In this document: positions 7,806 to 38,676 of the stretch, in pieces
Layout: each line of letters begins with the position of its first letter
Position numbering within the stretch: the first letter of the stretch is position 1
Notes under the pieces: model-generated
What the model saw: only the letters and a program-made list of their open reading frames with translations
Told to the model about the DNA's origin: nothing
Database searches by the model: none
Assembly: GCA_046590555.1 (NCBI GenBank)
Contig: JBKJUN010000556.1
Location: 1 to 42,891, forward strand
Length of the DNA: 42,891 nt
From: Bryobacter sp.
GTDB taxonomy: Bacteria > Acidobacteriota > Terriglobia > Bryobacterales > Bryobacteraceae
Direction of reading: 5' to 3'
Position numbers and translations under genes: made by a program

Positions 7806-7895
7806 AAGCTAATTTCCTGCCTTCTGGGGAGATTCCAAGCCAAAAATGGTCAAAATTGTTTCAAACACAAATGCCAGTATTGTATCATTGGCTCA

Positions 7896-8807
7896 ATGTT
7901 CGGCCAGGCACCCTTTGCGGCTGCCGTAAGGTCGTATTTGACTTACTGCAGAGTCGAAAAAGGTCTTTCCGCAGCGACCCTTAAGGCTTATGAGAGTGAT
8001 TTTGAGAGTTATTCCCGTTGGCTCCAAGAATCGTGTGAGGACTCGTTTTCGCAAATTGCAGTCCTGCAGCGTTTCCAAAATTACCTTTTGGAGCGAAAAC
8101 TGAGTAGCCGAAGTATTGCGCGAAAGTTTGCCGCCTTGCGTGGTCTGCTGAAGCATTTGGTGGCTGAAGGGCATTTGACCAAAGATCCGACAGAATTTCT
8201 GCGCACGCCGAATCCGCCACGCAAATTGCCGAAGGCGATTCCCGAGGGCCGATTGGCAGAAGTCGCAGAGGCGTTTGATCGGGCAACCCCAAGAGGCCTG
8301 CGCGATTGGGCCATGTTTGAGCTTTGTTATGGATCTGGATTGCGATTGAGCGAACTTGTGAATGTGCAATTATCGGCATATAACGCCCTTTCCATGCGTC
8401 TGAGAGTGACGGGGAAAGGGAACAGACAGCGCTTGCTGCCTGTCGGCAGCGATGCGGCCAAAGCCATCGACCAGTATCTTCTGGAGGGACGCACCAAGTT
8501 GTTGCGTGGGGAAAGTTCACCCTTCCTGTTTGTGAGTTCCCGCGGGCCGAAGCTTGAGAGCCGCTCCTACTGGAAGGTTCTCGCTCAACTTCGCCGCGCG
8601 ATGGGGAGTGACAAGGCCTTGCACCCGCATATGCTTCGCCATTCTTTCGCGACACATTTGCTCGATGGCGGAGCAGATCTCAGAAGTGTCCAAGCCTTAC
8701 TGGGGCACGCAGATATTTCGACGACTCAGATTTACACCCATGTCGAGCAGGAACGCTTGCGTGGGATTGTTGACCAATTTCATCCAAGGGAAGCCAAGAA
8801 ATTATGA
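7896..8807 (+). CDS. xerD: Tyrosine recombinase XerD
   Basis: YCRVEKGLSAATLKAY N-terminus; YGSGLRLSEL, GKGNRQR, HPHMLRHSFATHLLDGGADLRSVQALLGHADISTTQIYTHV. Confidence 0.88.
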   Translation: MFGQAPFAAAVRSYLTYCRVEKGLSAATLKAYESDFESYSRWLQESCEDSFSQIAVLQRFQNYLLERKLSSRSIARKFAALRGLLKHLVAEGHLTKDPTEFLRTPNPPRKLPKAIPEGRLAEVAEAFDRATPRGLRDWAMFELCYGSGLRLSELVNVQLSAYNALSMRLRVTGKGNRQRLLPVGSDAAKAIDQYLLEGRTKLLRGESSPFLFVSSRGPKLESRSYWKVLAQLRRAMGSDKALHPHMLRHSFATHLLDGGADLRSVQALLGHADISTTQIYTHVEQERLRGIVDQFHPREAKKL

Positions 8808-21503: not shown

Positions 21504-21768
21504 GATGACCTGGGCCAAACTATGACCGCCTGGGGCTACAACAATTTGGAACTATTTTGCCGAGACGCTTTTGCCGGACTTCTCCCCGCTCCAAGGATGA
21601 CGCCTTGCGGCTCTGCCGCCGCACGCGATTTCTCCGCGGGCCAGTTTCCGGCCACCAAACGCTTCTTATACGCACTCAGTGCATTTCGCGTCTTGTTTCG
21701 AGTCGAGTTGCTTTCCAGATTTGTATTCCAGGCCGACGGTTCTCCCGGGATCCTTAAGGAGATGCCTG

Positions 21769-24615
21769 ATGGCAAAAGAGTTAGTAATTTCCACTGGGCG
21801 GCACGAAACCCGTGTCGCCATCATGGAAGAAGACCAGCTGGTCGAAATCTATTTCCAGCGCGCTAATGAATATTCGCTCGCCGGATCGATCCACAAGGGC
21901 CGCGTTACCCGCGTGCTCCCTGGAATGCAATCCGCTTTCGTCGACCTTGGTCTCGAACGCGACACATTCCTCTACGTCTCTGACTTCTTTGAAGAGAACG
22001 AAGAGTTTGAAAAGATGCCGGAAGGGCGCGAACGAACAGAACGTATAGGTACAGAACGTATCGGTACAGAACGTATCGGTGCAGAACGTATCGGTGCAGA
22101 ACGTATCGGTACAGAACGTATCGGTACAGAACGTATCGAGCGTCCGGATCGTGACCAGAACCGCGGACGCGGTCGAGATGGCCGGGACGGTGGGCGGGGT
22201 CGTGGTCGTGATCGCCGCGAACCCTTGGTCGTTCAATCTGCCGCAAATGCCTCTGCCCTCAATGCTCCCGTCGCTGATGCTGCTGCGATAGATGCTCCGC
22301 GAGTCGTAGTCGAACGACCAGCTTCTGGCGATGCCGAAGATCAGCGCCGTGGCAACCGCCGGCGTCGTCGCGGTCGTTCCGCTCAAGGAGGCAACTTCCC
22401 TGAATCGAAGTTCGCCGATGCAACCGAAGAAGAGGAAGCAGTTACCGAAGAGCTCGAATCGATCATCGAAGCGCAAGAAAATGTCGATGCGCCTTCGATG
22501 CCTATTCTGCTTCCCGGCGAGACTCTCTCGAAGTACAGAGGTCGGCCTGCAGAAGTTGCCGCGTCCTTTGAGGATGAGGTCGAAGTTGAAGCCGATGAAC
22601 CCGAGCTTGCTTTTGAGGCTATCGTTGAAATCCATGAAGCGCCAGTCACCCCTCTCAAAGCAATCACCCCTGAGTCCATTGCTGAGCGGCTTGAAGACGA
22701 AGTGCTCGAAGAAGTAAAAGAACACCTTGCTGAAATGGCCAAGGAGAACGAAGAGCAGCGAGACTTCGAAGAAGCCGAGCGCTTGGCCTATCAAGACAAA
22801 GAGAACGCCGAGGCAGAAGCTGCCATCGCTGCATCTGCGCAGTTAGACAACCAGAATTTACAGGTTTCTGATGATCAGGACTCCGATGATGACAACGACG
22901 ATGAGGTCGATGATGATGCAGAGGCCTCAGTTTCGCTCGAATCGATTGCGACTGAAGGTGATGAGGCTCAGGTACTAGCCGAGGGCGAATCTCCGGATTC
23001 CGATGCTGATGGTGTTCTCCCCTCACTTGGCTATTCAGCTCACTTGCGCCAGACCGACCAGCGCTTCCTTCAGCAAAGAGCTCCACAAGAAGGCGGCGAA
23101 GGGCAAGAGAGAGGCGGCAGGCGTCGGCGCAGGGGTGGCAGGGGCAGAGACCGCGCGGCTGCACCAGAGGCCGCTGCAGGCGCAATAGAAGCCCCAGTGG
23201 TGACCGAAGGCGAAGCAGCCGTAGTTCCCCCTGTAGAAGCTCAAAGAGACTCCGAACCGCGTCGCGAAGACGGTCGCCGTGACGGACGCAACCGCCGTGA
23301 CCGTGGAGATCGATCTGAGCCACGCGGCGAGCGAACAGCAACCGATCGAAGCGATCGACCAGAGCGCTCTGCAGATCGAAACGACCGTCCAGACCGTGAG
23401 CGCCGTCCGCAGCCCTCAATTACTGAGCTCCTCAAAGAAGGCCAGGAAATCCTGGTCCAGATCGCAAAAGAGCCGCTTGGACAAAAGGGCGCGCGAATCA
23501 CATCGCATATCGCTCTTCCAGGCCGCTACTGCGTCTATATGCCCACCGTCGACCATACGGGCGTTTCCCGCAAGATCGCCTCAGACGAAGAGCGTCTGCG
23601 CTTGAAGCGTATTCTTCAAAGCCGTAAAGAGGGAATCCCTGGCGGATTTATCATCCGCACTGCGGGAGAAGGCCGGACTGAAGAAGAGATCCTCGCCGAC
23701 ATCGAATTTCTCAGCAACCTCTGGGTTGACATTCGCAAGAAGGCAGAAAGCAAGCCGGCTCCGGCTCTGATCTACCACGACCTCGAAATTGTGGAACGTG
23801 TCCTTCGTGATCAGCTGGGCCCCGACTTCAAGTCGATCTGGGTCGACAACGAAGAGATCTACGAGAGCATCCTGCGCTTCCTCGAGCGTTTCCAGCCGAT
23901 GATGGTTTCTCGCGTCAAAATGTACACGCGCCAAGCCTCCATCTTCGATAACTTTGGAATCACGCAGGAACTTGAGAAAGCTCTCCGCCCAAAGGTCTGG
24001 TTGAAATCGGGCGGTTACATCGTAATCAATCAGACGGAAGCACTCGTTGCCATTGATATCAACACAGGCAAGTTTGTTGGTAAGTCCAATCGACTGGAAG
24101 ATACCATCGTCAAAACCAACGTCGAGGCCATCCGCGAGATCGTCCGTCAGGTTCGTTTGCGCGACCTCGGCGGCATTATCGTCATCGACTTCATTGATAT
24201 GGATGAACGCAAGAATCGCATGAGGGTCATGCAGGCCCTTGAGGAGGCAATGCGTGCCGATCGCGCCCCTTACAAGATTCTGCAGTTTAACGACTTTGGC
24301 CTGGTTGCGATCACACGCAAGCGCGTCAAACAGTCGCTTGAGCGCACCCTATGCGCCCCTTGCCCCTATTGCGAAGGCTCAGCATACGTCAAGAGTGTGC
24401 AGACTGTCGTCGGTGAAATCCTCAACGAAGCCAAGAAATTGGCCCGGGCGCTGGAAGACTCGAAAGACGTCCTGCTCCGGGTGAACCCCGAAGTAGCGAA
24501 GGTCTTCAAATCTTCTGACAACCAGTACCTCGAAGAACTCGAAGAAATTGTAGGCCGGCCTGTAATGGTGGTTTCTGATGGCTTGATTCATCAGGAAAAA
24601 TTTGATCTGGCCTAG
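21769..24615 (+). CDS. rne: Ribonuclease E/G family with a large disordered insertion in the S1 domain
   Basis: KGRVTRVLPGMQSAFVD, QIAKEPLGQKGAR, AIDINTG, RLRDLGGIIVIDFIDM and the Zn-link CPYC; AAGGAG ribosome-binding site before the ATG at 21769. Confidence 0.93.
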   Translation: MAKELVISTGRHETRVAIMEEDQLVEIYFQRANEYSLAGSIHKGRVTRVLPGMQSAFVDLGLERDTFLYVSDFFEENEEFEKMPEGRERTERIGTERIGTERIGAERIGAERIGTERIGTERIERPDRDQNRGRGRDGRDGGRGRGRDRREPLVVQSAANASALNAPVADAAAIDAPRVVVERPASGDAEDQRRGNRRRRRGRSAQGGNFPESKFADATEEEEAVTEELESIIEAQENVDAPSMPILLPGETLSKYRGRPAEVAASFEDEVEVEADEPELAFEAIVEIHEAPVTPLKAITPESIAERLEDEVLEEVKEHLAEMAKENEEQRDFEEAERLAYQDKENAEAEAAIAASAQLDNQNLQVSDDQDSDDDNDDEVDDDAEASVSLESIATEGDEAQVLAEGESPDSDADGVLPSLGYSAHLRQTDQRFLQQRAPQEGGEGQERGGRRRRRGGRGRDRAAAPEAAAGAIEAPVVTEGEAAVVPPVEAQRDSEPRREDGRRDGRNRRDRGDRSEPRGERTATDRSDRPERSADRNDRPDRERRPQPSITELLKEGQEILVQIAKEPLGQKGARITSHIALPGRYCVYMPTVDHTGVSRKIASDEERLRLKRILQSRKEGIPGGFIIRTAGEGRTEEEILADIEFLSNLWVDIRKKAESKPAPALIYHDLEIVERVLRDQLGPDFKSIWVDNEEIYESILRFLERFQPMMVSRVKMYTRQASIFDNFGITQELEKALRPKVWLKSGGYIVINQTEALVAIDINTGKFVGKSNRLEDTIVKTNVEAIREIVRQVRLRDLGGIIVIDFIDMDERKNRMRVMQALEEAMRADRAPYKILQFNDFGLVAITRKRVKQSLERTLCAPCPYCEGSAYVKSVQTVVGEILNEAKKLARALEDSKDVLLRVNPEVAKVFKSSDNQYLEELEEIVGRPVMVVSDGLIHQEKFDLA
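22036..22140 (+). repeat. In-frame 15-bp tandem repeat, 7 copies of RCAGAACGTATCGGT, encoding (T/A)ERIG
   Basis: Read directly; seven contiguous units with no spacers. Confidence 0.95.
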
Positions 24616-25355: not shown

Positions 25356-25445
25356 GGAGAGGTGGCCGAGCGGTTTAAGGCGCACGCTTGGAAAGCGTGT
25401 GTACAGGAAACTGTACCGAGGGTTCGAATCCCTCCTTCTCCGCCA
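25356..25445 (+). tRNA. tRNA-Ser (GGA)
   Basis: Acceptor stem GGAGAGG/CTTCTCC, anticodon arm CACGC-TTGGAAA-GCGTG, long variable arm GTACAG-GAAA-CTGTAC, GGTTCGAATCC, encoded CCA. Confidence 0.98.
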
Positions 25446-26582: not shown

Positions 26583-26921
26583 AGTCTTAACCATTGTCGC
26601 TGACAACTCCCCAGGAAGCCCGGAAAATCGACTCGCTGTTGTCTTCCGGCGCGACATCAAGAGGTGTCGAGTTAGAATTCACCATCCGTCATCCGAATTC
26701 CTGCCTGAAGGCCCAATCCAAAGGGTGAAATCAATTCTCAACAAGCAGCAAGAAGCGGTTCACAAGTATTTTTCAACTCTATTTCCTTTCTTATCAATAA
26801 AAAATGGCTTATTTGAAATTTCTTTGAGCCTGATCGTGACTAATCTCTGTGTGGGGTAAGTGCCCTGAAGACATTGAACTAACAGAAAGTTACGAAGCGC
26901 CTGTTTCGTATTCGAGCAGAA

Positions 26922-28328
26922 ATGAACTTGACGCAAATTACCGATGCGATCCAGCCGCATCCAGACTATCGGGCATGGCTCGCCAGCCTTGAGATGTATC
27001 GCGATCTTTATTCAGGAGGCGCACAGATGAAGTCGAAAGCTAGTAGCTACTTGTATCGCCGCCACCGCGAGCCTGCTGAGGTTTACCAGGAGAGAGTAAG
27101 CCGGGCTTTCTATGAAAACTATATGGGGTCGATTATCGACTGGTACGCCTCCACCCTTTTCCGCAGAGAACCGATTCTCACCGTTGAAGATACAAACCGC
27201 CGTAGCAGTAAGTACTACTTCGAGTTCTTTGAAGATTGCGACGGCAACGGCTCAAATATCACGGATTTTCTTCGCAAGCGATTTATCGATGCATTGGTTT
27301 TTGGGAAGTCATTTATCGCTTTGGAGTTTCCAAAGCGGGAGGCCAGCTTTAGTAGCCGGCTCGAGGAAGAAGCATTGGGAGTGGACAAAGGCTATCTAAC
27401 CGCTATCCACCCAACGGATGTCGTCAACTGGGAATACTCGCAAGATGGCAAATTGACTTTGCTCTGTGTGAGACTTCAGGGGCCAAAATCAGCCGGTTCA
27501 TTCGATTTCAATAAAGATGCCTCCCGCTATCTGATCTACACCGAAACCGAGTATTTCATCGTCGAGGAAGATCCATCTGAAGACAAAGCAATTCGCTTGA
27601 TCGAACAGGGTCTGCACTCTTGCTCTTCAGAGATGCGGCTTCCTGTTTTTGACATCACCCTCAGCGATGGACTGTGGCTGATGAACAAAGCCGCACATCT
27701 TCAACTCGAGCATTACAACAAATCCAATTCTTTGTCCTGGTCCCTCGGCATGGCGCTCTATGCCACTCCAGTCGTTTACAGCAAGAAGGATTGGTCGACC
27801 ATTCTTGGGGAATCTTACTATATCCATCTCGACCCCGAAGACAAGTTTGGCTGGACCGAGCCTGAAGGCAACGTCTATCGAATCGCCATGGAAAACCTGG
27901 CTCGGCTGCAGGAAGAAATTTACCGTACTTGCTATCTCATGGGCCAATCGAGAAGTTGGCTCTCCGGGTCTGCCCAGGTTAGTGGCAACAGCAAGCGAGC
28001 GGATTACCAAATTACTCAGGAAGTGCTCCGGGCCTACGGCGACACCGTCAAGGACACTCTGAAACGACTTTTGCAGACACTGATTCGTGTCCGCAAAGAT
28101 GACCTCCGAATTTCCGTTTCTGGTCTCGACGAATTCGAGGTCGGGGAATTCAATGAGGAACTCGATGAAGCGCAAAAGTTGCTGAATCTTGGTATCGACT
28201 CAAAGACTTTCCGCAAGCAGGCCTTCAAAAAGCTGGCTTTTAAGTTTCTTGCGGATATCAATGAAACCACCAAAGCGAAAATTGCCGCTGAAATCGAAGA
28301 ACAGATCGACAAAGGAGATGCGAAATGA
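26922..28328 (+). CDS. Phage portal protein (DUF4055-like)
   Basis: 468 aa; HPDY...YRDLYSGG...YL.R...E..EVYQERVSRAFYENY...LFRREP...EDCDGNGSNITDF...DVVNW pattern; first gene of the head module. Confidence 0.85.
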   Translation: MNLTQITDAIQPHPDYRAWLASLEMYRDLYSGGAQMKSKASSYLYRRHREPAEVYQERVSRAFYENYMGSIIDWYASTLFRREPILTVEDTNRRSSKYYFEFFEDCDGNGSNITDFLRKRFIDALVFGKSFIALEFPKREASFSSRLEEEALGVDKGYLTAIHPTDVVNWEYSQDGKLTLLCVRLQGPKSAGSFDFNKDASRYLIYTETEYFIVEEDPSEDKAIRLIEQGLHSCSSEMRLPVFDITLSDGLWLMNKAAHLQLEHYNKSNSLSWSLGMALYATPVVYSKKDWSTILGESYYIHLDPEDKFGWTEPEGNVYRIAMENLARLQEEIYRTCYLMGQSRSWLSGSAQVSGNSKRADYQITQEVLRAYGDTVKDTLKRLLQTLIRVRKDDLRISVSGLDEFEVGEFNEELDEAQKLLNLGIDSKTFRKQAFKKLAFKFLADINETTKAKIAAEIEEQIDKGDAK

Positions 28329-28897
28329 ATTCAAATCCGGAATCAGAATCGCAAAACACCACTGGGGACCTGAAAAAACTTGTCCATGAGGTGTTTGAGG
28401 AATTTCACAACGTTCAGTCGAAACGAACGGAACCGGCCTATAAAGCTGAACTCGAGGAAGAACGCCGCAAGCGGGAATCCATGGAAAAGCGCCTCAATGA
28501 ATTGGTGGACGAGAACCGTCGTACCAAGGCCAAGGCTGAATCCATGGAGCGCGAATCCTTGATTCGCAATGAACTTCAGCGCTTGGGCGTGGCCAAAGTG
28601 GACCTCGCGTTCAAGGCGGTAAAAGACGACATTCACCGGGATACTGATGGCTCCCTGCATGGTCGCGGCACAGACGGAAATGTGCCGGTGCAGGAATTCT
28701 TGCGAAAGTTCGTGGACGAAAATCCAGAACTTCTCCCGGCACGAAATTTGGGTGGCAGCGGAACGTCTTCGGCCGGCCGCGGTGCCCAAAACTCCCCTGG
28801 TATTGATCTGGATTCGATCAAGCCAGGAATGAGCAAAGAAGATTTGGCCCGAGTGCGCAAAGAAATTGCGCGCGTAGCTGGCCTGATGGTCGATTAA
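28325..28897 (+). CDS. Capsid scaffolding protein
   Basis: Charged coiled-coil N-terminal half, FVDENPELLP followed by a Gly/Ser linker and C-terminal helix; lies between portal and capsid. Confidence 0.8.
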   Translation: MNSNPESESQNTTGDLKKLVHEVFEEFHNVQSKRTEPAYKAELEEERRKRESMEKRLNELVDENRRTKAKAESMERESLIRNELQRLGVAKVDLAFKAVKDDIHRDTDGSLHGRGTDGNVPVQEFLRKFVDENPELLPARNLGGSGTSSAGRGAQNSPGIDLDSIKPGMSKEDLARVRKEIARVAGLMVD

Positions 28898-28918
28898 CAA
28901 AACCAAAAAGGAACATAC

Positions 28919-29827
28919 ATGCCTTCTATTACTTCTGCGAATCTCGCAAACGCGATTGTGAAACTTGTTGCAGCCGATGCGCTGCCTGCCCTGATGGGCA
29001 ACCTCGTGATGGGCAATCTTGTCAATCGCGATTTCGAACCGACTCTGGCCAAGGCTGGGGATACCGTGAACGTACCCGTTCCTCCTTCGCTCGTTGCCAA
29101 CAACATTGCTGACGGCGGTTCGGTCATCACCCAGAACCCCAACCTTGGCAATGCACAGATTGTGCTGAATACACATGCTGAAGCTACCTTTCAGATTCCT
29201 GATGTCACCAAGATTGTTGCCGTCCCGGATCTTCTGAAGCTCTACATGGAACCTGCGATCGTTGCGCTTGCCGAGAAGGTCGAAAGCGATTTGCTAGCTC
29301 TGGCGATTTCGTTCACCTCCAACACTGCTTTGGGTGCTGCGGCCACTCCGCTGACCGAACAGATCGTTGATGACGCTGAAACCGCTCTCTTCAATGCCAG
29401 GGTACCTGCCAGCATGCAAAAGTATCTGGTTGTGGATGCGGCGGGCTACTCTGCTCTTCGTCAGAATCCCCGTTTCAGCGAATATTCCAAAGCTGGTGAA
29501 GCTGGTCTGAAGGCCTTGATTGATGGCAACATCGGTCGCCTGAAGGATTTCTACGTCTTCCGCTCACAGTTTGTCCGCAAGTCTGGAACTCCTCTTACGA
29601 CCTTCAATTTGGCCTTCGCTAAGAATGCTCTCGGCCTGGCCGTTCGTCGTCTCCCGCAGCCTCTGCCGGGCACCGGCGCAATCGCTGAATATGCCGAACT
29701 TGGCAACTTCGGCGTGCGAGTGGTCATGAGCTACCAGCCCGATACTTTGTCGCAGCAGTTCACTGTTGACATCCTTTACGGTGCTGGTGTTCTCCGCAAT
29801 AGCCACGCTGTTCAGGTTCGCAGCTAG
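28919..29827 (+). CDS. Major capsid protein (HK97 fold, P22-coat-like family)
   Basis: 302 aa; LVNRDFE...GDTVNVPVP, LAEKVESDL, ARVP...YLVVD, IGRLKDFYVFRS, FAKNALGL and DILYG pattern; followed by a terminator. Confidence 0.88.
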   Translation: MPSITSANLANAIVKLVAADALPALMGNLVMGNLVNRDFEPTLAKAGDTVNVPVPPSLVANNIADGGSVITQNPNLGNAQIVLNTHAEATFQIPDVTKIVAVPDLLKLYMEPAIVALAEKVESDLLALAISFTSNTALGAAATPLTEQIVDDAETALFNARVPASMQKYLVVDAAGYSALRQNPRFSEYSKAGEAGLKALIDGNIGRLKDFYVFRSQFVRKSGTPLTTFNLAFAKNALGLAVRRLPQPLPGTGAIAEYAELGNFGVRVVMSYQPDTLSQQFTVDILYGAGVLRNSHAVQVRS

Positions 29828-29847
29828 TCTGTTTGAGCTGATAAACG

Positions 29848-29883
29848 AAAGGGTCGGTGCTCTCTTCGAGCACTGGCCCTTTT
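29848..29883 (+). terminator. Intrinsic terminator/attenuator after the capsid gene
   Basis: AAA-GGGTCGGTGCTC-TCTTC-GAGCACTGGCCC-TTTT: 12-bp stem with two G-U pairs and a short U tract. Confidence 0.8.
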
Positions 29884-29916
29884 CAAGTTTTAATTCACGA
29901 AATAGAGCAAAAGATC

Positions 29917-30678
29917 ATGGCCCTACTCAAAGATCAACCCATCAGCTGTTTGGCGGAATGGATGGCCTACGACTCAAAGTTATCCATCCTCTCTGAACAG
30001 GAATCAACATCCATCGAGGCGAAGTCGAGCCTCGCACAAAATGAAATTGAAACGCAGGTCACGAGCTTTTTGCTTCGCCACAGTGGCTTAAGTGAAAACG
30101 CAGCTCGCCAGAGCCTGGACAAAGTGGTCGTCACTGAAGCACTCTCGCGATGGCACAGTATGTTGACGCTAAGTCTTTTCTACATCGACTTGGCCTCACT
30201 GCAAAACAGCACTCTTCATAGAGATCAATCCCAATTTTTCGACCTTAAGGCAAAGGCTGCAATGGACCAACTGTTTGAAACTGGCCTCGGTATCGTCAAC
30301 CTGCCAATACCCAAGGCACCCATACCTTTTATCGTTTCCAACCCTGGGACGGGTGAACCGCGAATCTTGAGAGGCCGCATCCGCTTTCAGGATGTCGATG
30401 GCGCTCTAGGCGCTCCCAGTTCGGAGTTTGTTCTCGACATGTCTTCCGGAGAGTCTATGGAGTTGAGCGTCGAGAATTTGCCATCCCGCGTTGCCGGGTG
30501 GCTCCTCTATCTCGGTGAGTCCTCCGAGCCTCTATACAAATCAATGCCCACTCCGATTAGCGCTGGACTTCCGTTTCTGGTCACTGCTGGTCTGCCTCCG
30601 GTCAACGCCGAAGAGATCACCAAGCCCGCACAGCTTCCAGATCGATTCGTACGCTATTCCACTGAGTTGTGGAGGTAG
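29917..30678 (+). CDS. Putative head-tail adaptor with a C-terminal Ig/FN3-like domain
   Basis: Position after the capsid gene; helical N-terminal half and beta-rich C-terminal half. Confidence 0.55.
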   Translation: MALLKDQPISCLAEWMAYDSKLSILSEQESTSIEAKSSLAQNEIETQVTSFLLRHSGLSENAARQSLDKVVVTEALSRWHSMLTLSLFYIDLASLQNSTLHRDQSQFFDLKAKAAMDQLFETGLGIVNLPIPKAPIPFIVSNPGTGEPRILRGRIRFQDVDGALGAPSSEFVLDMSSGESMELSVENLPSRVAGWLLYLGESSEPLYKSMPTPISAGLPFLVTAGLPPVNAEEITKPAQLPDRFVRYSTELWR

Positions 30679-30683
30679 TTGCA

Positions 30684-31175
30684 ATGAACTTGTCAGGCAA
30701 AGCTGTAATTGCAGCACAGGATATCCTCGCTGGCGAATCAGGCCTCAAGGTAAGCGTCGAAGCAATACAGGAACTTCGTGGGGAGCTTGCTAAAGAAGCC
30801 CGATTCCAGGTGGACACCGATCACTGGAATCAGAAGATGTCGGAGCGCATCCCCGCTAATCGCAACCCGAAGATTTCTGTCTCGCTCGTCAAGCTACACC
30901 GCGGGCAGAAAGAAAAAATGGCTGAGTTTACAGCCCTCGCGACTCTTCAGCTTGAGTTGTCCTCAACTCACGAACGTGCTGATTCGCTTCAGGGCCTCAT
31001 CAGCGACTATGTCGATGCTCTCTGCGATGTGCTCAATCGCAACCAGGGCCTCTGGAGCAAAGGCGTTTATTACGCCGGTGGCTTCGATGTCGACGTTGCG
31101 CCCATATCCAAGGGCGGCCTCAATTTCGTGCAGAGCGCCACGATCTCAATTGAAATTCATCTCTGGCAGGAATAA
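30684..31175 (+). CDS. Putative tail completion/terminator protein
   Basis: 163 aa with a GGAGGT ribosome-binding site; alpha/beta pattern; immediately before the tail tube. Confidence 0.55.
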   Translation: MNLSGKAVIAAQDILAGESGLKVSVEAIQELRGELAKEARFQVDTDHWNQKMSERIPANRNPKISVSLVKLHRGQKEKMAEFTALATLQLELSSTHERADSLQGLISDYVDALCDVLNRNQGLWSKGVYYAGGFDVDVAPISKGGLNFVQSATISIEIHLWQE

Positions 31176-31177
31176 CC

Positions 31178-32347
31178 ATGGCTAACGAATACATCGCATC
31201 TCTATCGAATCGAATCTTCCTCAAGTCGGAAATCGATTCGCCAACTCTCAACAACATGGCCGAGGCCGGAATCGCCCCGGTCACTTCATTTGAACTTTCA
31301 AGCAATCGAAAGCAACTCTACCGCAGAGACAAAACAGGATTTCGTTCTGAATCCCCCGTGATGGGGCCGCAACGGGAATTGATTGAATTCAAGCTTGAGA
31401 GCTATGGAACAGGCTGGGCAGGTGGCAGCTCCAAGCCGGCGATTGCTCCGATTCTTGAGAGTGGTCTCTGCCAAAGTGCAGCACTCACCTCTTCTCTTGC
31501 TGTCCAATCAAGTGCCGGCACTTCGATCACTCTTCAGGCTGACGCTTCGCTTCAAATTGGAATGGGGCTATCGTTCGGATCAGAAATCCGCTTCATTGAA
31601 TCGATTTCTGGCCTTCGCGATTTCACCCTCAACGCCGCGTTCTCGGTCCAGCTTAGTTCAGGGGCTCAACTCGATGGCTGCGCCAACTTGTCACTTGGCG
31701 AGAGCGTCAACCCGATGTCGATCCTTGATTCATGGGCCCCTTCCCAGGCGATCCAGCGCTTCGTAACGGGGGCCGTTACCGATCTGCTCAAGGTCAGCAT
31801 CAACAACGATTTCCTAGAGATATCAGCCAAGGGCTATGCTCGGAACCTCTACGACAATGTCAGCGGCATCGGCGGCTCCGAGTTTCAGTTCCCTGCGACT
31901 CCAATCAATTCTTCAGCTCTCGGAAACTCGCCCATAGCCGGCCACCTCGGGCAAGCCTTCATCGGTGTTCCCGCTGCCCGGCTCTGTACGCTCACTCAAG
32001 CGGAACTTCGCATCGACAACAACATTGAGCCACGCACCGATGAATTTGGTTGCTTCTCTACCAAAGCCTTCGTCCTGGGTCGCCGCAAAGTTTCGTTAGA
32101 CCTCACGATCTTCGAACGCAACGATGAACTGAGCCAGGCACTATACGCAAAGGCAGTCAACAACGAACCGGTTCCGGTCATGCTTCAGATGGGCAATCAG
32201 CCTGGCTCGATGTTTGCGATCTACTTACCGTCAGTTCTATTCCCGGTTCCCGCCTTTAGTGATGCTCAGCCTCGTCTCTTGTGGCAGTTCCGCAATGCGA
32301 TCGCCATGGGTCTTCAGAACGATGAAGTCTTCATCGCCTTGAGATAA
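31178..32347 (+). CDS. Putative major tail tube protein (non-contractile) with an inserted domain
   Basis: 389 aa, beta-rich; ELRIDNNIEPR...GRRKVSLDLTIF...GNQPGSMFAIYLPSV resembles siphovirus tube proteins; precedes the frameshifting chaperone gene. Confidence 0.7.
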   Translation: MANEYIASLSNRIFLKSEIDSPTLNNMAEAGIAPVTSFELSSNRKQLYRRDKTGFRSESPVMGPQRELIEFKLESYGTGWAGGSSKPAIAPILESGLCQSAALTSSLAVQSSAGTSITLQADASLQIGMGLSFGSEIRFIESISGLRDFTLNAAFSVQLSSGAQLDGCANLSLGESVNPMSILDSWAPSQAIQRFVTGAVTDLLKVSINNDFLEISAKGYARNLYDNVSGIGGSEFQFPATPINSSALGNSPIAGHLGQAFIGVPAARLCTLTQAELRIDNNIEPRTDEFGCFSTKAFVLGRRKVSLDLTIFERNDELSQALYAKAVNNEPVPVMLQMGNQPGSMFAIYLPSVLFPVPAFSDAQPRLLWQFRNAIAMGLQNDEVFIALR

Positions 32348-32350
32348 ATC

Positions 32351-32728
32351 ATGGACCTCAAATACGAGCGGGAGTTCGACTCTGCTTCAACGCCGGGCTT
32401 CCGCTTCATTGTAAAAAGATTGTCTTTGTCTCATCGCATTCTATTTTTGGCTGACAACCATGAGCTGATGCAACGTGTAAAGTTCTACAGTGCCGCATCC
32501 AGTCCTGACACTGCAGCGCGATTTTCGCTCGCAGATCTCGAACTTGAACTCAGCCGTCGTCTTCTCGAAAAGTGCCTCATGGCGATCAGCACTGGTGTCG
32601 ACTTCAAGCCAGCTGGCTCTGATGAAATCGCTTGGCTTCTGCGAATGGCCCCGACAGAGCTTTGCGTTGAAGTGCTCACCAGAGTCAGCGATGAAATATC
32701 GCTTTCCGGGCAGCGACGAAAAAACTAG
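32351..32728 (+). CDS. Tail assembly chaperone (gpG equivalent)
   Basis: 125 aa between tube and tape measure; ends ...RRKN* on the slippery heptamer A AAA AAC. Confidence 0.8.
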   Translation: MDLKYEREFDSASTPGFRFIVKRLSLSHRILFLADNHELMQRVKFYSAASSPDTAARFSLADLELELSRRLLEKCLMAISTGVDFKPAGSDEIAWLLRMAPTELCVEVLTRVSDEISLSGQRRKN

Positions 32729-32776
32729 CAGCCGCCTTCCAATACCTCTCCTCCGCGTCCCGGTGGGAGTGCGGCT
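32719..32776 (+). other. Programmed -1 ribosomal frameshift signal
   Basis: X XXY YYZ heptamer A AAA AAC (32719-32725), 5-nt spacer, then a stem of GCCGC-CTTCC (32731-32740) pairing with GGGAG-T-GCGGC (32765-32775). Confidence 0.8.
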
Positions 32777-33030
32777 CATGCAGGGATCGCGGACTTGAAA
32801 CCGCCAGAGCATGCGGCTTCTTAAATTGCCAGTCATCGGAAACGCCAGTTTGGGCAGGTAAAAGTGAAGTCTTCTTTCAGTGTCCCGAAAGCGTCCTCGA
32901 CGGCGATGCTGCTTACTGGATCACACTCGAACGCTGGTGCCGCCTAATGGAGCCCAGCCGCTTTCTCTACTTTCCCGCCGTCGATTGCGACGCCATCAAT
33001 GCCATACAGGCAATAGAAAAGGAATCATGA
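32719..33030 (+). CDS. -1 frameshift extension of the tail assembly chaperone (gpGT equivalent, fusion about 226 aa)
   Basis: The -1 frame is open from 32695 to the TGA at 33028-33030 with no start codon until 32947, and reads LAAAFQYLSSASRWECGSCRDRGLETARACGF...CPES...AIEKES*. It ends 1 nt before the next ATG. Confidence 0.85.
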   Translation, partial: KKLAAAFQYLSSASRWECGSCRDRGLETARACGFLNCQSSETPVWAGKSEVFFQCPESVLDGDAAYWITLERWCRLMEPSRFLYFPAVDCDAINAIQAIEKES

Positions 33031-33031
33031 C

Positions 33032-33637
33032 ATGAACCAGGAATCGAACAAGGATCGCGCTGGAGCCAACCCGGCTACCGTCGGCGATGTGCTCTCTAAT
33101 ATGTTCCAGCAACTCAACACAAGCAACTCGAGCATCGTGGGGCAGATTCGCGATATTGGCGCGGCCACCACATCGAATCTTGATCGCATCGGCCAGTCTT
33201 TGACGCCTTCTGCTTCAGCCGTTACCTCAAGCTCGACTGGAAAAGATTTGTTGAATGCCATCAATCCGATCAGCAACTCAAAGGGAACAAACATTCTTAC
33301 GAGTCTTTTCCTTGGCCCGCTATGGAAGGGCCTTTTCAGCCTCTTTGGCGGCGGGGGCGGGGAACAGGAAGCCGTTCCTCTCACCAGGTTCAACTTTCCT
33401 GAGCAGGCAAGAACTGACCTTGCTGCCTCGCTACGCTCAGATGGCCAGTCCACTGGCGTTAGAACGAACGCCTTTGGCTTGACTCAAGCTGCACCAGTTT
33501 CGCAGCCCTTAATACAGATTTCCATCCAGGCCTTGGACGCCCGTTCCATCCTTGATCGCAGCGATGACATTGCTGCTGCCTTGAAGCAGGCCATGCTTTC
33601 AAACCACGAAATAAACGACAACCTGAACGAGATTTAG
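33032..33637 (+). CDS. Very short tape measure protein
   Basis: Directly follows the G/GT pair; Ala/Ser/Gly-rich helical sequence, amphipathic LFLGPLWKGLFSLFGGG and C-terminal IQISIQALDARSILDRSDDIAAALKQAM. Confidence 0.72.
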   Translation: MNQESNKDRAGANPATVGDVLSNMFQQLNTSNSSIVGQIRDIGAATTSNLDRIGQSLTPSASAVTSSSTGKDLLNAINPISNSKGTNILTSLFLGPLWKGLFSLFGGGGGEQEAVPLTRFNFPEQARTDLAASLRSDGQSTGVRTNAFGLTQAAPVSQPLIQISIQALDARSILDRSDDIAAALKQAMLSNHEINDNLNEI

Positions 33638-33639
33638 CC

Positions 33640-33990
33640 ATGGACTTCCCGATCCTGATATCCGGCGAGCAAGTGCAGTCGAGTACGATTCGATCCGAGC
33701 CGACACAGCACATTGAACACTTTTTTGAAGGCGATTCCCGCCAAGCCCAACTTCGCACCAACGCCGATCGAAAGACTTGGCAGCTCAGCTACCAGAATCT
33801 GATCGGCGAAGAAGCCATGCGTCTGCGCGCCTTTTTTGAAGGGCTCGCAGTAGAAGAGGAATTCTCATTCACCGACCCTTGGACAAGCACGGCCTATCCA
33901 AATTGCCGAATCGCAAATCCCCGGCTGCAAATGGCATGTGACAAGGATGGCCGCTTCTCGGCACAACTGGAGATTGAAAATGCCCGCTAA
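33640..33990 (+). CDS. Distal tail protein 1 (DUF2460/gpM-like)
   Basis: 116 aa; WQLSYQNL...E...LRAFF...FSFTDPW pattern; follows the tape measure. Confidence 0.68.
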   Translation: MDFPILISGEQVQSSTIRSEPTQHIEHFFEGDSRQAQLRTNADRKTWQLSYQNLIGEEAMRLRAFFEGLAVEEEFSFTDPWTSTAYPNCRIANPRLQMACDKDGRFSAQLEIENAR

Positions 33991-34774
33991 CCAAATTCAA
34001 TTCCCTGCGCTCGACAGCGGGATGCTGGCTCATCTGCCAGTAGAACTCTCAATTGAAAAAATGACCCGCGCCACTCGCTTCCCGGACGGCAGTCTCCTCT
34101 TTGCGGCGAACGAAGCCAGAACGCGATACATCTGGGTGCTCCGCTATGAAAATTTGAACCCGCAGGAGTGGCAACGCATGCTCAACTTCATTGCCGCCAC
34201 TCAACGTGGAGCCGCATCTTTCACCTTTTACGACCCGGTTGGAAACCTCCTCGCGCATTCAGGCAATTTAGAAGATTCCATTTGGCTGGCTCCACCCGGT
34301 CTCACTGTCGCTCCGATCTTGGATACCAACCAATCCAATGCATTTATCCTGACTAATCCAACCGCTCAGCCACTGGCTCTTTCTCAATCCGTCTCCTTGG
34401 TTGGCCCTTACACCACATGCTTCAGCATTCGAACTAAATGGGTAGGTGGAGCAAACTTTTCACTCGGCCTCTCGGATGCAGTTCAAAGCGTATCGGTGTC
34501 CCGCACCGCTGGTGCCTGGGCGCGTCACCACGTGCGTCTTAGCTCTCCTGGCACACCTGAAACGCGCATGGCCAGCATCATCGTTCCACCAACGACACAA
34601 ATCATTGTCGCTGCACCACAGCTTGAAATTGCGGCTAATCCAGGTGCGCCGCTTGAGACCGGATCTCAAAGCGGAGTCTTCCCGAATTCCTGGCTTATCC
34701 AAAAGAGTTTCGATACCCAATCCGTTGCGCCAGGTGCGCATTCCATCACCCTAAGAATTGAGAGCTTCCGATAG
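33980..34774 (+). CDS. Distal tail protein 2 (DUF2460-like) with an inserted beta-sandwich/CBM-like domain
   Basis: WVLRYENL...E...MLNFI...FTFYDPV followed by GNLLAHSGNLEDSIW...APQLE; GGAG before the ATG at 33980. Confidence 0.65.
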   Translation: MPANQIQFPALDSGMLAHLPVELSIEKMTRATRFPDGSLLFAANEARTRYIWVLRYENLNPQEWQRMLNFIAATQRGAASFTFYDPVGNLLAHSGNLEDSIWLAPPGLTVAPILDTNQSNAFILTNPTAQPLALSQSVSLVGPYTTCFSIRTKWVGGANFSLGLSDAVQSVSVSRTAGAWARHHVRLSSPGTPETRMASIIVPPTTQIIVAAPQLEIAANPGAPLETGSQSGVFPNSWLIQKSFDTQSVAPGAHSITLRIESFR

Positions 34775-34776
34775 CC

Positions 34777-37700
34777 ATGAGCCTCTTTGAATTGAAAGAA
34801 CAATCTGTCGTACCTGCCACCGCGCTTCTATGTGAAGTCACCCTGGCCGATGACACCAAGCGTTACTGGGCCTCGGCTCGATGCCAGGATGGAGCAAACA
34901 ATTATCAAGCACGCATTCAACCCGATCAGCTCAATCCCTGGAAGCTCACAAGTGATGTCTCAAGTGAAAATTCGGGCCAGGTCTCTGTTGTGTTTGCAGA
35001 CGATGATGGTGCAATCGCTCAGCTTTTCCAGACTGGCAAATTGATCGGCGCCAGAGTACGCTTTGCTGCCGCAGTGCTGAACGATTCCACCGTTGAAAGC
35101 AAGACCGTACTCCTTACGGGTCTTCTCGATACCGTCAGTGAATTGGATGGAAAATCAGCCCGTCTCAACGTTCTCAGCAGGCTAAGTTCGATTCGTGCCA
35201 ATTTCCCCCCGATGCGTATCCAGCGTCAATGTTCATGGGCATTCCCTTCGAACTCAGAGGAGCGCGATCTCGCCCTCAGCTCTGGCGAAGATGGCCGCTA
35301 CGCTCCGGTTTTCCGTTGTGGTTATTCGCCGGACAAAGCAGGTGGAGTTGGCAATCTTGATGGCACCCTTCTATTCACCTCCTGCGACTACACACGCAAG
35401 AGTTGCGAACAGCGCGGCATGTTCTCTAAGGACAGCACGAACCGAACTACTCAACGTTTCAGTGGCATCGAATTTGTTCCTCCATCGATTCTCGTGCGTG
35501 GCCACGGCGAGTCGTCAGGTCGCGTCTCCAATCTGGTCAGCCTTGACACTCGCTTTAACGATGTCGTACCCGCTGTCTACGGAACCGGATGGCTGCAGGC
35601 ACCTGTTGTCTTCTCACGTAACGATGGAAACCTGACCCGCTGCGAAGTCCTGCTCGGCCTCGGTGAGGTTGACAGTGTCATCAAAGTTGTCGCTGATGGA
35701 TTCGAAATTCCCGAAGGCATTACTGGGCAGAACATGACCGGCACCGGCTGGTTCAACCTCGTCAGCAAGGGCAATCGCACGGGTGCGCTCAATCTCGGCT
35801 TGACAGATGCAGCTGCAAACCCTGTTGGTGATCCGTATGCCAGCATGGCCTACCTCAACCTGGTTTTGCCGAACCGAATCAATGACGGTAAGAAGAGCCC
35901 AAAAGTCGAGGTACTGATCAAGGGGATCAAAGTCCCAGTTCTCGATTCTGCAGGCGCCTTGGTCTCTTCCGATTGGTCTTCTAATCCCGCCTGGATTCTA
36001 TGTGACATCCTCCGCCGAACAGGCTGGAAGCTGGATGAACTCGATCTCGCCACTTTCGTTTCAGCTGCGCAATTCTGCGATGAACTCATCGAAGCCCGCG
36101 ACGCCAACGGCACCCTACGGCAAGTCCGTCGCTTTGAAACCAGCCTCGTTTTAAAGCGTCGTTACAGTGTTGGAGAGCTACTACGCTCGCTCCGCATCGG
36201 TTCGCTTCTCTTTCTATACTTCCAGCCTGATGGCAAACTTGCCATTCGTCCAGAAACTACGATTGCTCAACAACAGCCAACCAAGCCAGCCGGCAGCAAT
36301 GCCGCCTCTGTGCTCAACAGCGGCTGGCCCACATACGAATTCGGCGATGGTATGAACCAGACCACGGGTATCCTCTTGAAGTCCAATATGGAGCCTGACT
36401 TCCGCATCTACTCAAAGCCAAGTCAGGATTCCCCGAATCGCGTCAGTTTTGAAATTCAGGATTCCCTTAACGAGTTCCAGCAAGACAGCATCTCCATCGC
36501 CGACACCGATGACATACGTCTCCGTCGACAGGAGATCACCCAGGCCTTGCCCGCCGTTGGCGTGTCCAACTTCCCGCAGGCTCAACGCATCTGTCAAACC
36601 TGGCTCAACAAGTCAATCGCCGGCAACGTCTATCTGGAGTTCCGCACCTCTGTGCGCGGCTTCCATATCAGACCGGGTGATCTCATTGCTCTCAGTTACC
36701 AGCGCTACGGCTTTGACCGTACGATCTTCCGCGTGCTCGAATTCCAGTTCTCGCCTCGCCTCGATGTGATGAAGGTCATCTGCCAACTGCATCAGGATCA
36801 CTGGTATTCCGACAACGCACAAATCCGCTATGACCGTTCCCGTATCTTTGCCTGGCGCACCGGCGCTGCTCGAGCAGTATGCGGCACCTTGATTGACGGT
36901 TTTGATGCGTCCGAACAATTGGCCATCGACTCCGATGGTGTCCAGAAGTGCGCTCTCAGGATCCCCTTTCGCAAACCACAGCCTGAACTTGGAGCCTCTG
37001 GTGGCGTCCCTCTGGTCAGCTTCGCCTACACGGTGCAATCCACCGGCGGTACTCTGCCCCAGGGCTCGTATTTCTATGGGCTCACTACTATCGATTCCAG
37101 TGGCGTCGAAAGCGGTCTCTCAAGCCTGATCCCGGTTCGAATCGGCGGCCTCACTTCTACAAACCGCGTAACCCTAAGTGGAATTAGTGTGGCCTCATCT
37201 GCGGTCAGCCTGAACCTGTATCGCGGCGCTTCACCGCATCGCCTTCTTCGCATTGCAACCGGGCTAACCGTGGCGGACACAGTCTCCGATACGGGCGCGA
37301 CGCCCGAGGCTCAGATCCCGCCTGACTCCAACTACAGCAGACTCAGGTCGTGGTTCCGGCAGACTTTCTTGGTCGATCAGACTCCGACCTCCTGGACTAC
37401 AACTTCCATTACTCGCACTGCGCTCAATCTGGTCGTTGATCGATGGATCGGCAAGAAAGTCGTGATTCGCGCGGGAAAAGGTATGGGTCAGGAACGTGTT
37501 ATCACCGCCAACACGGCTGAGTCGATCATGATCGAAAGGCCATGGGATGTTGTCCCCAATGCCACCTCCAAGTTCGCAATTGTGGAAACAACCTGGGCCT
37601 TAGCCGCAGAATCTGACACCGACATCATCACCGTAATGTTGCCGCTATTCACCGCATCAACCTTTGAGATAAGTCTTCGTTCAGTAGGCAAAGACAATCT

Positions 37701-38676
37701 CGAACTCGACCAGTTGGAATCTCCCTCACTTCAATGGCAGGTCGGAGTCGGCTCGACTTCCGGCTCAGACAGCGGCGTCCCCGCGACCCCGGCTTTCGGC
37801 TTCGCGTTGATTGAAGAAGGGACAGTCTCAATCGGCGGCATCGGCTTCAGTGTCCTCGAAAATCTCAGCTCAGTCTACGTTGGACAACTCGGCATCCTCT
37901 TCTGGGATGAGCTTACGGCCCCCACCCCGGCCAGCCTCGGTGCCGCCATCGCACCTTCAACTACAACCGTTACTCTCGACGGCCTCACAGCGAGTCTTGC
38001 TGAAGGCGATCTCTTTCAAATCGAAGAAGAAATCTTCGAAATCACAGGCGATCCCGCTAGCGGCAACATCTATCCGGTCATACGAGGCCGTTACCAAACC
38101 ACTGCAGTTGCACACGATGCTGCCAAGCCAACCTTCGTGCTCACAAGGCGTGACATGACGATTCCCTTCGTTCCCGGCTACTTCAGCTCAACGGCAGCAG
38201 TAGGCTTCCGCTACAACTTCAGGCTCCCAAACGTCCGCATCTCGGGTGCTGACTTCACCCTCTACAACCGAGTCGGGGCAAGCGCCCGAGCTGAAGAAAG
38301 CTACACCGGCGTAAGCAGCTTCGGCGTTCGCACTCTGTCTGGTGGTCAGATCACCATGAACGTCCAGGGCTATCTCGCCATTGAGGCTTCCGCCGGCAAC
38401 AGCTACATCGTAGACCGCACAACGGTTGTCCGCGATGTCTCGGCCTACGTCCAGGAAGCACCAGTCGGCGACGACATCGAGATCCTGGTTCGATTCAACG
38501 GTAACCCATACTGTGACCTGACAATCCCAGCCGGCAGCAACGTCGCGACAACCGTAAGCAAGTTCAACACTCAAGCCTTGCCACAAGGCGCCAAGATCTC
38601 CTTCGACATCTTGAACGTCCCCTCAGCAGCGCTTGGAACCCCTGGGCGAGACCTCACGGTCCTGCTCCAGATCTGA
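34777..38676 (+). CDS. Fused baseplate hub / central tail tip protein (gpL-like plus gpJ-like)
   Basis: 1299 aa; N-terminal four-Cys motif (C152, C181, C203, C210); VPAVYGT, WSSNPAWILCDIL, AAQFCDELI and HIRPGDLIAL motifs of gpJ-like proteins; beta-rich C-terminal domains. Confidence 0.85.
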   Translation: MSLFELKEQSVVPATALLCEVTLADDTKRYWASARCQDGANNYQARIQPDQLNPWKLTSDVSSENSGQVSVVFADDDGAIAQLFQTGKLIGARVRFAAAVLNDSTVESKTVLLTGLLDTVSELDGKSARLNVLSRLSSIRANFPPMRIQRQCSWAFPSNSEERDLALSSGEDGRYAPVFRCGYSPDKAGGVGNLDGTLLFTSCDYTRKSCEQRGMFSKDSTNRTTQRFSGIEFVPPSILVRGHGESSGRVSNLVSLDTRFNDVVPAVYGTGWLQAPVVFSRNDGNLTRCEVLLGLGEVDSVIKVVADGFEIPEGITGQNMTGTGWFNLVSKGNRTGALNLGLTDAAANPVGDPYASMAYLNLVLPNRINDGKKSPKVEVLIKGIKVPVLDSAGALVSSDWSSNPAWILCDILRRTGWKLDELDLATFVSAAQFCDELIEARDANGTLRQVRRFETSLVLKRRYSVGELLRSLRIGSLLFLYFQPDGKLAIRPETTIAQQQPTKPAGSNAASVLNSGWPTYEFGDGMNQTTGILLKSNMEPDFRIYSKPSQDSPNRVSFEIQDSLNEFQQDSISIADTDDIRLRRQEITQALPAVGVSNFPQAQRICQTWLNKSIAGNVYLEFRTSVRGFHIRPGDLIALSYQRYGFDRTIFRVLEFQFSPRLDVMKVICQLHQDHWYSDNAQIRYDRSRIFAWRTGAARAVCGTLIDGFDASEQLAIDSDGVQKCALRIPFRKPQPELGASGGVPLVSFAYTVQSTGGTLPQGSYFYGLTTIDSSGVESGLSSLIPVRIGGLTSTNRVTLSGISVASSAVSLNLYRGASPHRLLRIATGLTVADTVSDTGATPEAQIPPDSNYSRLRSWFRQTFLVDQTPTSWTTTSITRTALNLVVDRWIGKKVVIRAGKGMGQERVITANTAESIMIERPWDVVPNATSKFAIVETTWALAAESDTDIITVMLPLFTASTFEISLRSVGKDNLELDQLESPSLQWQVGVGSTSGSDSGVPATPAFGFALIEEGTVSIGGIGFSVLENLSSVYVGQLGILFWDELTAPTPASLGAAIAPSTTTVTLDGLTASLAEGDLFQIEEEIFEITGDPASGNIYPVIRGRYQTTAVAHDAAKPTFVLTRRDMTIPFVPGYFSSTAAVGFRYNFRLPNVRISGADFTLYNRVGASARAEESYTGVSSFGVRTLSGGQITMNVQGYLAIEASAGNSYIVDRTTVVRDVSAYVQEAPVGDDIEILVRFNGNPYCDLTIPAGSNVATTVSKFNTQALPQGAKISFDILNVPSAALGTPGRDLTVLLQI

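Follow-up and report, generated by a model that had tools for sequence, protein, structure and literature searches.

The head-tail operon and its surroundings

The stretch of DNA analysed here (the window) is the 42,891-nucleotide contig C625 (JBKJUN010000556.1) of the genome G000, an assembly of 6.35 Mb and 93% completeness whose nearest named relatives are Bryobacter metagenome-assembled genomes (MAGs). On its (+) strand, positions 26922-38676 (11.8 kb) hold an operon of 11 co-directional open reading frames (ORFs) encoding the head and tail of a phage-like particle, and the subject of the present work is this operon and its relation to gene transfer agents (GTAs). A sequence-only reading of the window had reported 11 intact genes at this position, and all 11 ORFs are indeed free of stop codons. 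The names which that reading gave to the portal, scaffold, capsid, tube and hub/tip genes are backed by Pfam or PHROG families, whereas the adaptor, completion protein, chaperone G, tape measure and two distal-tail (Dit)-like genes match neither database. These six names are based on position and on conserved order in relatives, and in the case of the adaptor also on look-alikes in the ESM Atlas.

The first gene encodes a portal protein of 468 aa (26922-28328; phrog_145, E 7e-45), with no terS or terL ahead of it. Its AlphaFold model (mean predicted local distance difference test score, pLDDT, 76.6) matches phage portals, the best being 8ts6 (E 1e-17). It is followed by a head scaffolding protein of 190 aa (28325-28897; phrog_206, E 3e-6) and a P22-coat-like major capsid protein of 302 aa (28919-29827; PF11651, E 4e-18; phrog_283, E 4e-42), which also gives a profile match to the capsid protein of PDB 8zdh (E 3e-7); the structure prediction of the capsid protein was poor (pLDDT 46.7) and was not used for the fold search. 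The description of the head as a scaffold plus a P22-like coat is thereby upheld, as is the reported lack of a prohead protease and an NlpC/P60 gene, neither of which appears among the Pfam and PHROG matches of the operon. Immediately 3' of the capsid gene lies a hairpin with a U-rich tail (29843-29889, z -5.7, with none of 200 shuffles equally stable), likely an intrinsic terminator or attenuator. The terminator postulated previously thus has a structural counterpart, but one that is absent from the output of a simple consensus terminator scan.

The tail genes start with a likely head-tail adaptor (29917-30678, counted from an ATG at 29917; the longest ORF begins at 29857), assigned by position; its ESM Atlas look-alikes are phage proteins, with DUF4054 and a head-tail connector as leads at scores below 0.9. 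A likely tail completion/terminator protein, placed by position and conserved order (30684-31175), precedes the tail tube protein of 389 aa (31178-32347; phrog_290; PF18906 with E 6e-6, just under the cut-off). The tail assembly chaperone G (125 aa; 32351-32728) ends on the slippery heptamer A AAA AAC at 32719-32725, and a Cys-rich extension in the -1 frame (32713-33030) is open and predicted to yield a GT chaperone. The heptamer is conserved in relatives and the -1 frame is open for at least 80 codons in 83 of 86 of their loci, which bears out the frameshift signal noticed earlier; no stable structure is found 3' of the slippery site (z 0.37 and -0.12). Next come a short tape-measure-like protein of 201 aa (33032-33637), with similar length and a conserved C-terminus in 18 aligned loci, the distal-tail-like protein 1 (116 aa; 33640-33990), named from its position and with a profile that cross-matches the following gene, and the distal-tail-like protein 2 (33983-34774), named from position and conserved order. 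The last and largest gene encodes a hub/tip protein of 1299 aa (34777-38676; PF13550, E 4e-11; phrog_31, E 1e-18), which carries five invariant cysteines (Cys152, Cys181, Cys203, Cys210 and Cys434) in 49 of 49 loci and is likely a fusion of an Fe-S hub with a central tail protein. No toxin or sheath gene was found in the operon with Pfam or PHROG. In seven loci of family f2 (L231-L235, L238 and L239), 2-3.5 kb of extra genes are present between the tape measure and the Dit-like genes, consisting of one conserved 200-aa ORF in all seven and variable ORFs resembling carbohydrate-binding fibre or spike proteins.

Spacing between the genes is tight throughout (-8 to +21 nt), with the 89 nt 3' of the capsid gene as the exception, in agreement with the translational coupling claimed before. 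A sigma-70 promoter scan gave no excess (4 found, 6.5 expected). Just 5' of the portal start, an inverted repeat at 26884-26915 is kept in most of 13 Bryobacter loci and is a possible operator or RNA hairpin; a conserved AT-rich motif lies near it, about 130 bp upstream.

The operon is embedded in housekeeping genes, with mreBCD-pbp-rodA-rne-tRNA-Ser-ribBA on one side and wzt-peptidase on the other, and the wzt start codon lies 30 bp past the hub stop codon, the same distance as first reported. Its GC content is 53.4%, compared with 53.1% upstream and 55.4% in the genome. The sequence-only reading had found no integrase, repressor, replication or lysis genes and no attachment (att) repeat; this holds in Pfam and PHROG scans in and beside the operon, in the upstream ORFs of relatives and in a search for flanking repeats around the operon. 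Two neighbouring features had been passed over, namely the tRNA-Ser at 25356-25445, about 1.5 kb upstream with ribBA in between, and a XerC/D-type tyrosine recombinase gene at 7656-8807, located 18 kb upstream beside a poly(A) polymerase-family gene in a housekeeping context. As att site and prophage integrase, respectively, both were rejected on account of distance, the intervening housekeeping genes and the lack of a repeat. The nearby RNase E/G gene (21679-24615) contains a long acidic insertion and short tandem GTERI/GAERI repeats near the N-terminus.

Inheritance of the operon in Bryobacterales

The capsid gene is present in 187 of 251 genomes of the order Bryobacterales, with a single match in 168 of these, and is distributed over the families as 160/176, 24/72 and 2/2. 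Among 61 relatives, 46 carry it, including all 19 of the genus Bryobacter. Its absence from all 11 complete-looking genomes of the genus g24 (e.g. G041 and G047) is a lineage-level loss. In a sample of 401 genomes from the phylum, strong capsid matches were limited to three genomes, all from the operon-bearing family; six further genomes gave partial matches (23-30% identity), and outside the family all matches were weak and partial. G027 (C153 and C43) and G498 (C156 and C71) each have two capsid genes of full length, 73-77% identical to the query, for which duplication, transfer and bin contamination are candidate causes. Three records titled 'Bordetella' or 'Arcobacter' (L135, L162 and L168) carry the Bryobacterales operon; the RpoB sequences of L162 and L168 group with Bryobacteraceae, and the titles are probably mislabels.

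The operon genes follow the host phylogeny closely. A tree of concatenated operon genes was compared with an RpoB tree for the 49 genomes having both the operon and a near-full RpoB, after leaving out, from 68 genomes, nine without an RpoB match, eight with a partial RpoB and two without the operon. The trees have 34 of 46 splits in common, compared with at most three after label shuffling, and 29 of the 31 RpoB splits with support of at least 0.95 recur in the operon tree, with one conflict. Furthermore, the ratio of non-synonymous to synonymous substitution rates (dN/dS; pairwise NG86 over the 11 genes, for pairs that share genomes and are thus not independent) is 0.048-0.090 in eight Bryobacter pairs and 0.063-0.227 in nine of ten other pairs, the tenth being saturated. 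Near-single copy number, conserved gene order, a capsid tree congruent with the species tree and dN/dS well below 1 had been named beforehand as support for a domesticated locus, and all four are observed, the tree being that of the concatenated operon genes. Closest homologs in complete prophages, with a patchy distribution, had been named as evidence to the contrary; cultured phages reach at most 32% identity to the operon capsid and portal.

An estimated 1200 stretches in IMG/VR match the capsid, and the best 80 contigs are all pieces of the same operon of at most 18.7 kb. Because these 80 derive from a host locus, soil virome catalogues likely count it as a virus. PMC5900883 counts acidobacterial prophages, and its supplements may list the locus as one. 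Upstream of the operon in 30 loci, 57 of 104 ORFs have Pfam matches, none of them to phage integrase, repressor, replication or lysis families. These upstream flanks vary between genera, the site being fixed within Bryobacter and not across the order. Taken together, none of the hallmarks of a prophage (integrase, att site, repressor, replication and lysis genes, patchy distribution) is found for the operon. Since it is order-wide, mostly single-copy, congruent with RpoB, under low dN/dS and at most 32% identical to phages, the operon is, as judged from these comparisons, a domesticated and vertically inherited Bryobacterales locus.

Terminase loss and the split-terminase cassettes

The most important point missed by the sequence-only reading is that the operon has no terminase gene. 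The locus had been treated as a complete structural cluster, but it lacks three elements that the operons of most relatives contain, namely the terminase genes, a gene after the capsid and a tail gene at the end. In 54 of 80 genome loci a TerL of about 433 aa, with a short TerS-like gene ahead, is encoded directly 5' of the portal, and the same terS-terL-portal start is seen in 44 of the 46 IMG/VR loci whose upstream DNA is long enough; the other two are of the Bryobacter type. This cognate TerL occurs in 187 of the 251 order genomes and in none of the 19 Bryobacter genomes, and a profile search of G000 also found none. A small gene downstream of the capsid (gene X), present in 69 other loci, was likewise not found in Bryobacter. 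A tail gene of about 1000 aa (PF23845/PF23844), situated 3' of the hub in 43 other loci, is relocated in Bryobacter to a second locus (C655 in G000), where it is single-copy in 18 of 19 genomes. Despite the loss of terL, the Bryobacter portal is under strong constraint (dN/dS 0.03-0.07) and its clip is conserved.

A candidate for the missing motor is encoded elsewhere. The orphan terminases of G000 consist of adjacent ATPase and nuclease genes outside any prophage, and no other portal was found in G000 with the three Pfam families whose positive controls worked. Such split terminases (small gene, ATPase and nuclease) are present in all 19 Bryobacter genomes, and one cassette orthologue (C952 in G000; 72-98% identity) is fixed in 16 of them, lying 3' of a 74-aa gene and a gene of the NAxxHGL family in 16 of 16 cases and abutting the same sulfatase in 12. 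Family matches are to PF03237, phrog_7579 and PF17289. Capsid and split-ATPase sequences are also filed under the name Bryobacter aggregatus. In the split ATPase, G52-K53-S54-T55 and D141-E142 (Walker A and B) are invariant in 44 sequences, and in the split nuclease D89 and D176 are invariant and D15 nearly so in 31 sequences; with ATPase motifs and RNase H-type acidic triad intact, the cassette is, by its motifs, a large terminase. The fixed cassette has a dN/dS of 0.011-0.061 in six pairs and 0.09-0.12 in one. Similarity between the ATPase and the cognate TerL is very remote, with profile E-values of about 0.01-0.05. Judging by where it lies, by a two-helix pattern and by one relative whose N-terminal part resembles a helix-turn-helix (HTH), the 74-aa protein may be a TerS without a DNA-binding domain, and one cassette copy (L220) has an HTH-type small subunit; PHROGs, Pfam and the ESM Atlas offered no function for the 74-aa gene or for the NAxxHGL family. 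The latter has 44 matches in G000 (e.g. L321:3124-3768, (-) strand), and in 5 of 18 loci of the relocated tail gene a member immediately precedes that gene; a regulatory or TerS-like role in connection with the particle system is possible.

Across the order, the split-terminase family is found in 68 of 251 genomes, with up to 10 dispersed copies per genome and with some members fused. It is limited to the operon-bearing family in the class sample, where 0 of 169 genomes from 12 other families contain it. The dispersed copies, which are common to close relatives, have a dN/dS of 0.08-0.37 in eight pairs. Translations of the genes around the cassettes at G000:C769:1-7000 and C908 read as PIN-domain and HigA-like toxin-antitoxin genes.

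On the operon tree, four lineages have lost terS-terL from the operon, each with another terminase elsewhere; G500 was left out of this list, its contig ending inside the portal. The first lineage is Bryobacter, whose sister L182 carries the cognate TerL but lacks split copies. The second is a clade of three genomes (G642, G701 and G724) with 6-10 cassette matches each, and the third is G531, with two. In the fourth (G491, G496 and G629) no terL is present at the operon, and G491 and G496 encode a divergent full-length TerL elsewhere. Counted over genomes, all 11 that are capsid-positive and cognate-TerL-negative contain split terminases, compared with 49 of 176 TerL-positive ones.

A feature common to both terminase types is the C-terminal arm. 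The cognate TerL ends in an arm of the W...GE[RQ]xxRL type, and a motif drawn from these TerLs is found in 61 of 67 of them and in all 14 fixed nucleases; among the other split nucleases 10 of 34 have it, and among background ORFs 17 of 3207. The ending RLPGF is common to the fixed cassette and three cognate TerLs, and the motif is missing from two related phage TerLs (Riverbug and MMP17). PMC5727402 implicates the TerL C-terminal arm in binding to the portal. The stand-alone TerLs of G496 (L350:1426-2748) and G491 (L351:1429-2748) also end in an arm of the cognate type.

A predicted DNA-transfer particle and its relation to known systems

The Bryobacter operon is probably the head-tail core of a host-owned, GTA-like particle that would package and deliver host DNA with a motor borrowed from a separate split-terminase cassette. 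We are fairly confident, from the comparative evidence, that a GTA-like DNA-transfer particle of this kind exists across the order. In Bryobacter, the particle genes are likely spread over three loci, i.e. operon, tail gene and terminase cassette; in G013 a single contig carries all three at distances of more than 1 Mb, and they thus could not be packaged together. In the proposed mechanism, scaffold and capsid would assemble a prohead on the portal, after which the cassette ATPase and nuclease would dock on the portal via the C-terminal arm that resembles the lost TerL arm. The docked motor would cut chromosomal DNA and fill the head, presumably without much preference for particular sequences, since no HTH is seen in the 74-aa protein. 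A non-contractile tail, short and about as long as that of RcGTA, would then be added, a minority of cells would lyse to release the particles, and recipients would recombine the delivered DNA. The independently domesticated GTA proposed by the sequence-only reading thus receives support from copy number, gene order, dN/dS, tree and the lack of a close phage relative, but the operon on which it was built is incomplete and has no terminase.

Several points weigh against this interpretation. Particles, packaged host DNA and its transfer, the last two being the defining traits of a GTA, are predictions from genes, most of the genomes compared are MAGs and no lysis or regulator gene was identified. 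The Bryobacter portal clip displays no compensatory change (changes at 9 of 141 conserved sites, a level also seen in tube and hub), and the fixed cassette orthologue was not found in three of the 19 Bryobacter genomes. The arm motif was drawn from cognate TerLs and defined after both sets had been seen, only 10 of the 34 other split nucleases match it, and an Arg-bearing C-terminal arm is general among terminases according to the available part of PMC5727402, so that the likeness of the arms is supporting evidence and not proof. Furthermore, the association between terL loss and split terminases is based on few independent events, since Bryobacter supplies eight of the 11 genomes without the cognate TerL and another is cut off by the end of a contig. 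Finally, 49 genomes hold both the cognate TerL and split cassettes, and in six of the 68 split-positive genomes neither capsid nor TerL was found, which may reflect assembly gaps or independence of the cassettes from the operon; the cassettes are thus not simply replacement parts.

Four other explanations deserve consideration. The particle might package DNA and yet serve killing, decoy or defence, for which PBSX is the model. The comparative results demonstrate only that the host retains the operon, and terminase retention would point to filling with DNA, not to recombination in recipients, both of which agree with such a role. We nevertheless regard it as unlikely, given the non-contractile tail, the RcGTA-like short tape measure, the 1299-aa tip protein and the absence of toxin and sheath genes from the operon. 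The orphan cassettes might instead be selfish, satellite-like elements that hijack the host particle, in which case the packaged DNA of terL-less lineages would be biased to cassette loci. Their patchy presence in 68 of 251 genomes, their dispersed copies, their confinement to the operon-bearing order in the samples, the cognate TerL-type arm of some copies and the HTH-type small subunit of L220 would fit hijacking elements. Purifying selection on dispersed copies common to close relatives and the fixation of the Bryobacter copy at one site speak against it, and a tRNA was found in none of 49 cassette loci, a tyrosine recombinase in one of 48 (in flanks of only about 1.5 kb); this explanation is considered quite improbable.

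A third alternative is a DNA-free tailed shell used for adhesion, protein delivery or decoy, to which the split terminases would be unrelated. It would account for the missing terS-terL and gene X in Bryobacter and for the great distance between split ATPase and cognate TerL. It has little to say about a portal that, clip included, is as constrained as in TerL-positive genera, nor about four independent losses that each coincide with another terminase, and we give it little credence. Lastly, that the operon is a decaying or recently acquired prophage remnant, as its phage-derived genes, its listing as viral in IMG/VR and the tRNA-Ser 1.5 kb upstream might suggest, is barely credible in view of the order-wide presence, tree congruence, dN/dS of at most 0.23, intact frames, lack of integrase and att site, and best 80 IMG/VR contigs that are mere pieces of the operon.

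Returning to the host-owned transfer particle, its confirmation would add a GTA lineage that arose separately, in an order abundant in soil and freshwater and within a phylum without a described GTA in the literature searched. That terL was lost repeatedly, with another terminase elsewhere in every case, amounts to a natural experiment. It points to DNA packaging as the function kept by selection, and the swapping of motors on one capsid makes the question of GTA packaging specificity testable. A more far-reaching and rather doubtful proposal is that of an undescribed Bryobacterales GTA family whose capsid-portal platform takes interchangeable motors. The mobile, mostly split cassettes would then mimic the portal-docking arm of TerL and have spread through the hosts as GTA parasites, having possibly taken over at least three times, with deletion of the native terminase; a parasite that was itself domesticated would thereby have supplied the new motor of a domesticated particle.

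In the literature searched, which excludes most subscription papers, neither this locus nor any GTA from Acidobacteriota was found described, nor a GTA whose terminase had been displaced; the available text of PMC11841831 and PMC9662315 has no occurrence of 'Acidobacter'. Three of the six features in the GTA viriform definition, as far as given in the accessible part of PMC9662315, are recognisable from sequence: caudoviricete-derived proteins (family matches of portal, scaffold, capsid, tube and tip, and the portal fold), endogenisation over several loci (housekeeping flanks without integrase or att site, with tail gene and cassette at separate loci) and vertical inheritance with co-diversification (the RpoB congruence over 49 genomes). 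The other three features are predictions for the particles: mostly random host DNA as their content, for which the sequence offers an intact terminase elsewhere, a head too small for the full set of their own genes, and delivery of the packaged DNA to other cells. The same definition, in that text, also requires experimental support.

The closest likeness is to RcGTA, in which a head-tail cluster of structural genes only is likewise complemented by accessory genes elsewhere. According to the available portion of PMC7296036, its tape measure of about 216 aa (49-nm tail) and its megatron of 1304 aa compare with 201 and 1299 aa for the tape measure and tip protein here. GTA small terminases, that of RcGTA included, have no DNA-binding domain in the accessible text of PMC11841831, as read here for the 74-aa protein, and vertical inheritance is a further common trait (PMC9662315, same portion). 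Unlike RcGTA, the Bryobacterales operon combines a P22-coat-like capsid with a scaffold and has neither a prohead protease nor a peptidoglycan peptidase gene; its hub is apparently fused to the tip protein, which matches GTA_megatron only weakly (21.6 bits, with a cut-off of 800), and the Bryobacter terminase lies outside the cluster and is split into two genes. Megatron, protease and peptidase define the gene set of the Rhodogtaviriformidae, and by its predicted genes the present system is RcGTA-like in working and not a member of that family. With BaGTA, VSH-1, Dd1 and VTA it would have in common that the morphogenesis module of a tailed phage was domesticated independently and is often distributed over several loci (PMC11841831 and PMC9662315, available parts), and it differs from them in host phylum, these systems being compared by description.

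Among phages, the split ATPase comes closest to the TerLs of Thermus phage Riverbug and Meiothermus phages MMP17 and MMP7 (44-49% identity). In contrast to the cassettes, the TerLs of Riverbug and MMP17 are encoded by a single gene (415-417 aa) beside the portal gene. Phage-inducible chromosomal islands and Staphylococcus aureus pathogenicity islands (PICI/SaPI) are phage satellites that redirect packaging and have stand-alone terminase genes, and they resemble the cassettes in that these genes could act on the capsid of another element. Unlike PICI/SaPI, the cassettes carry a large terminase, usually split, without an integrase or replication gene nearby, and the provider of the capsid would be a locus owned by the host.

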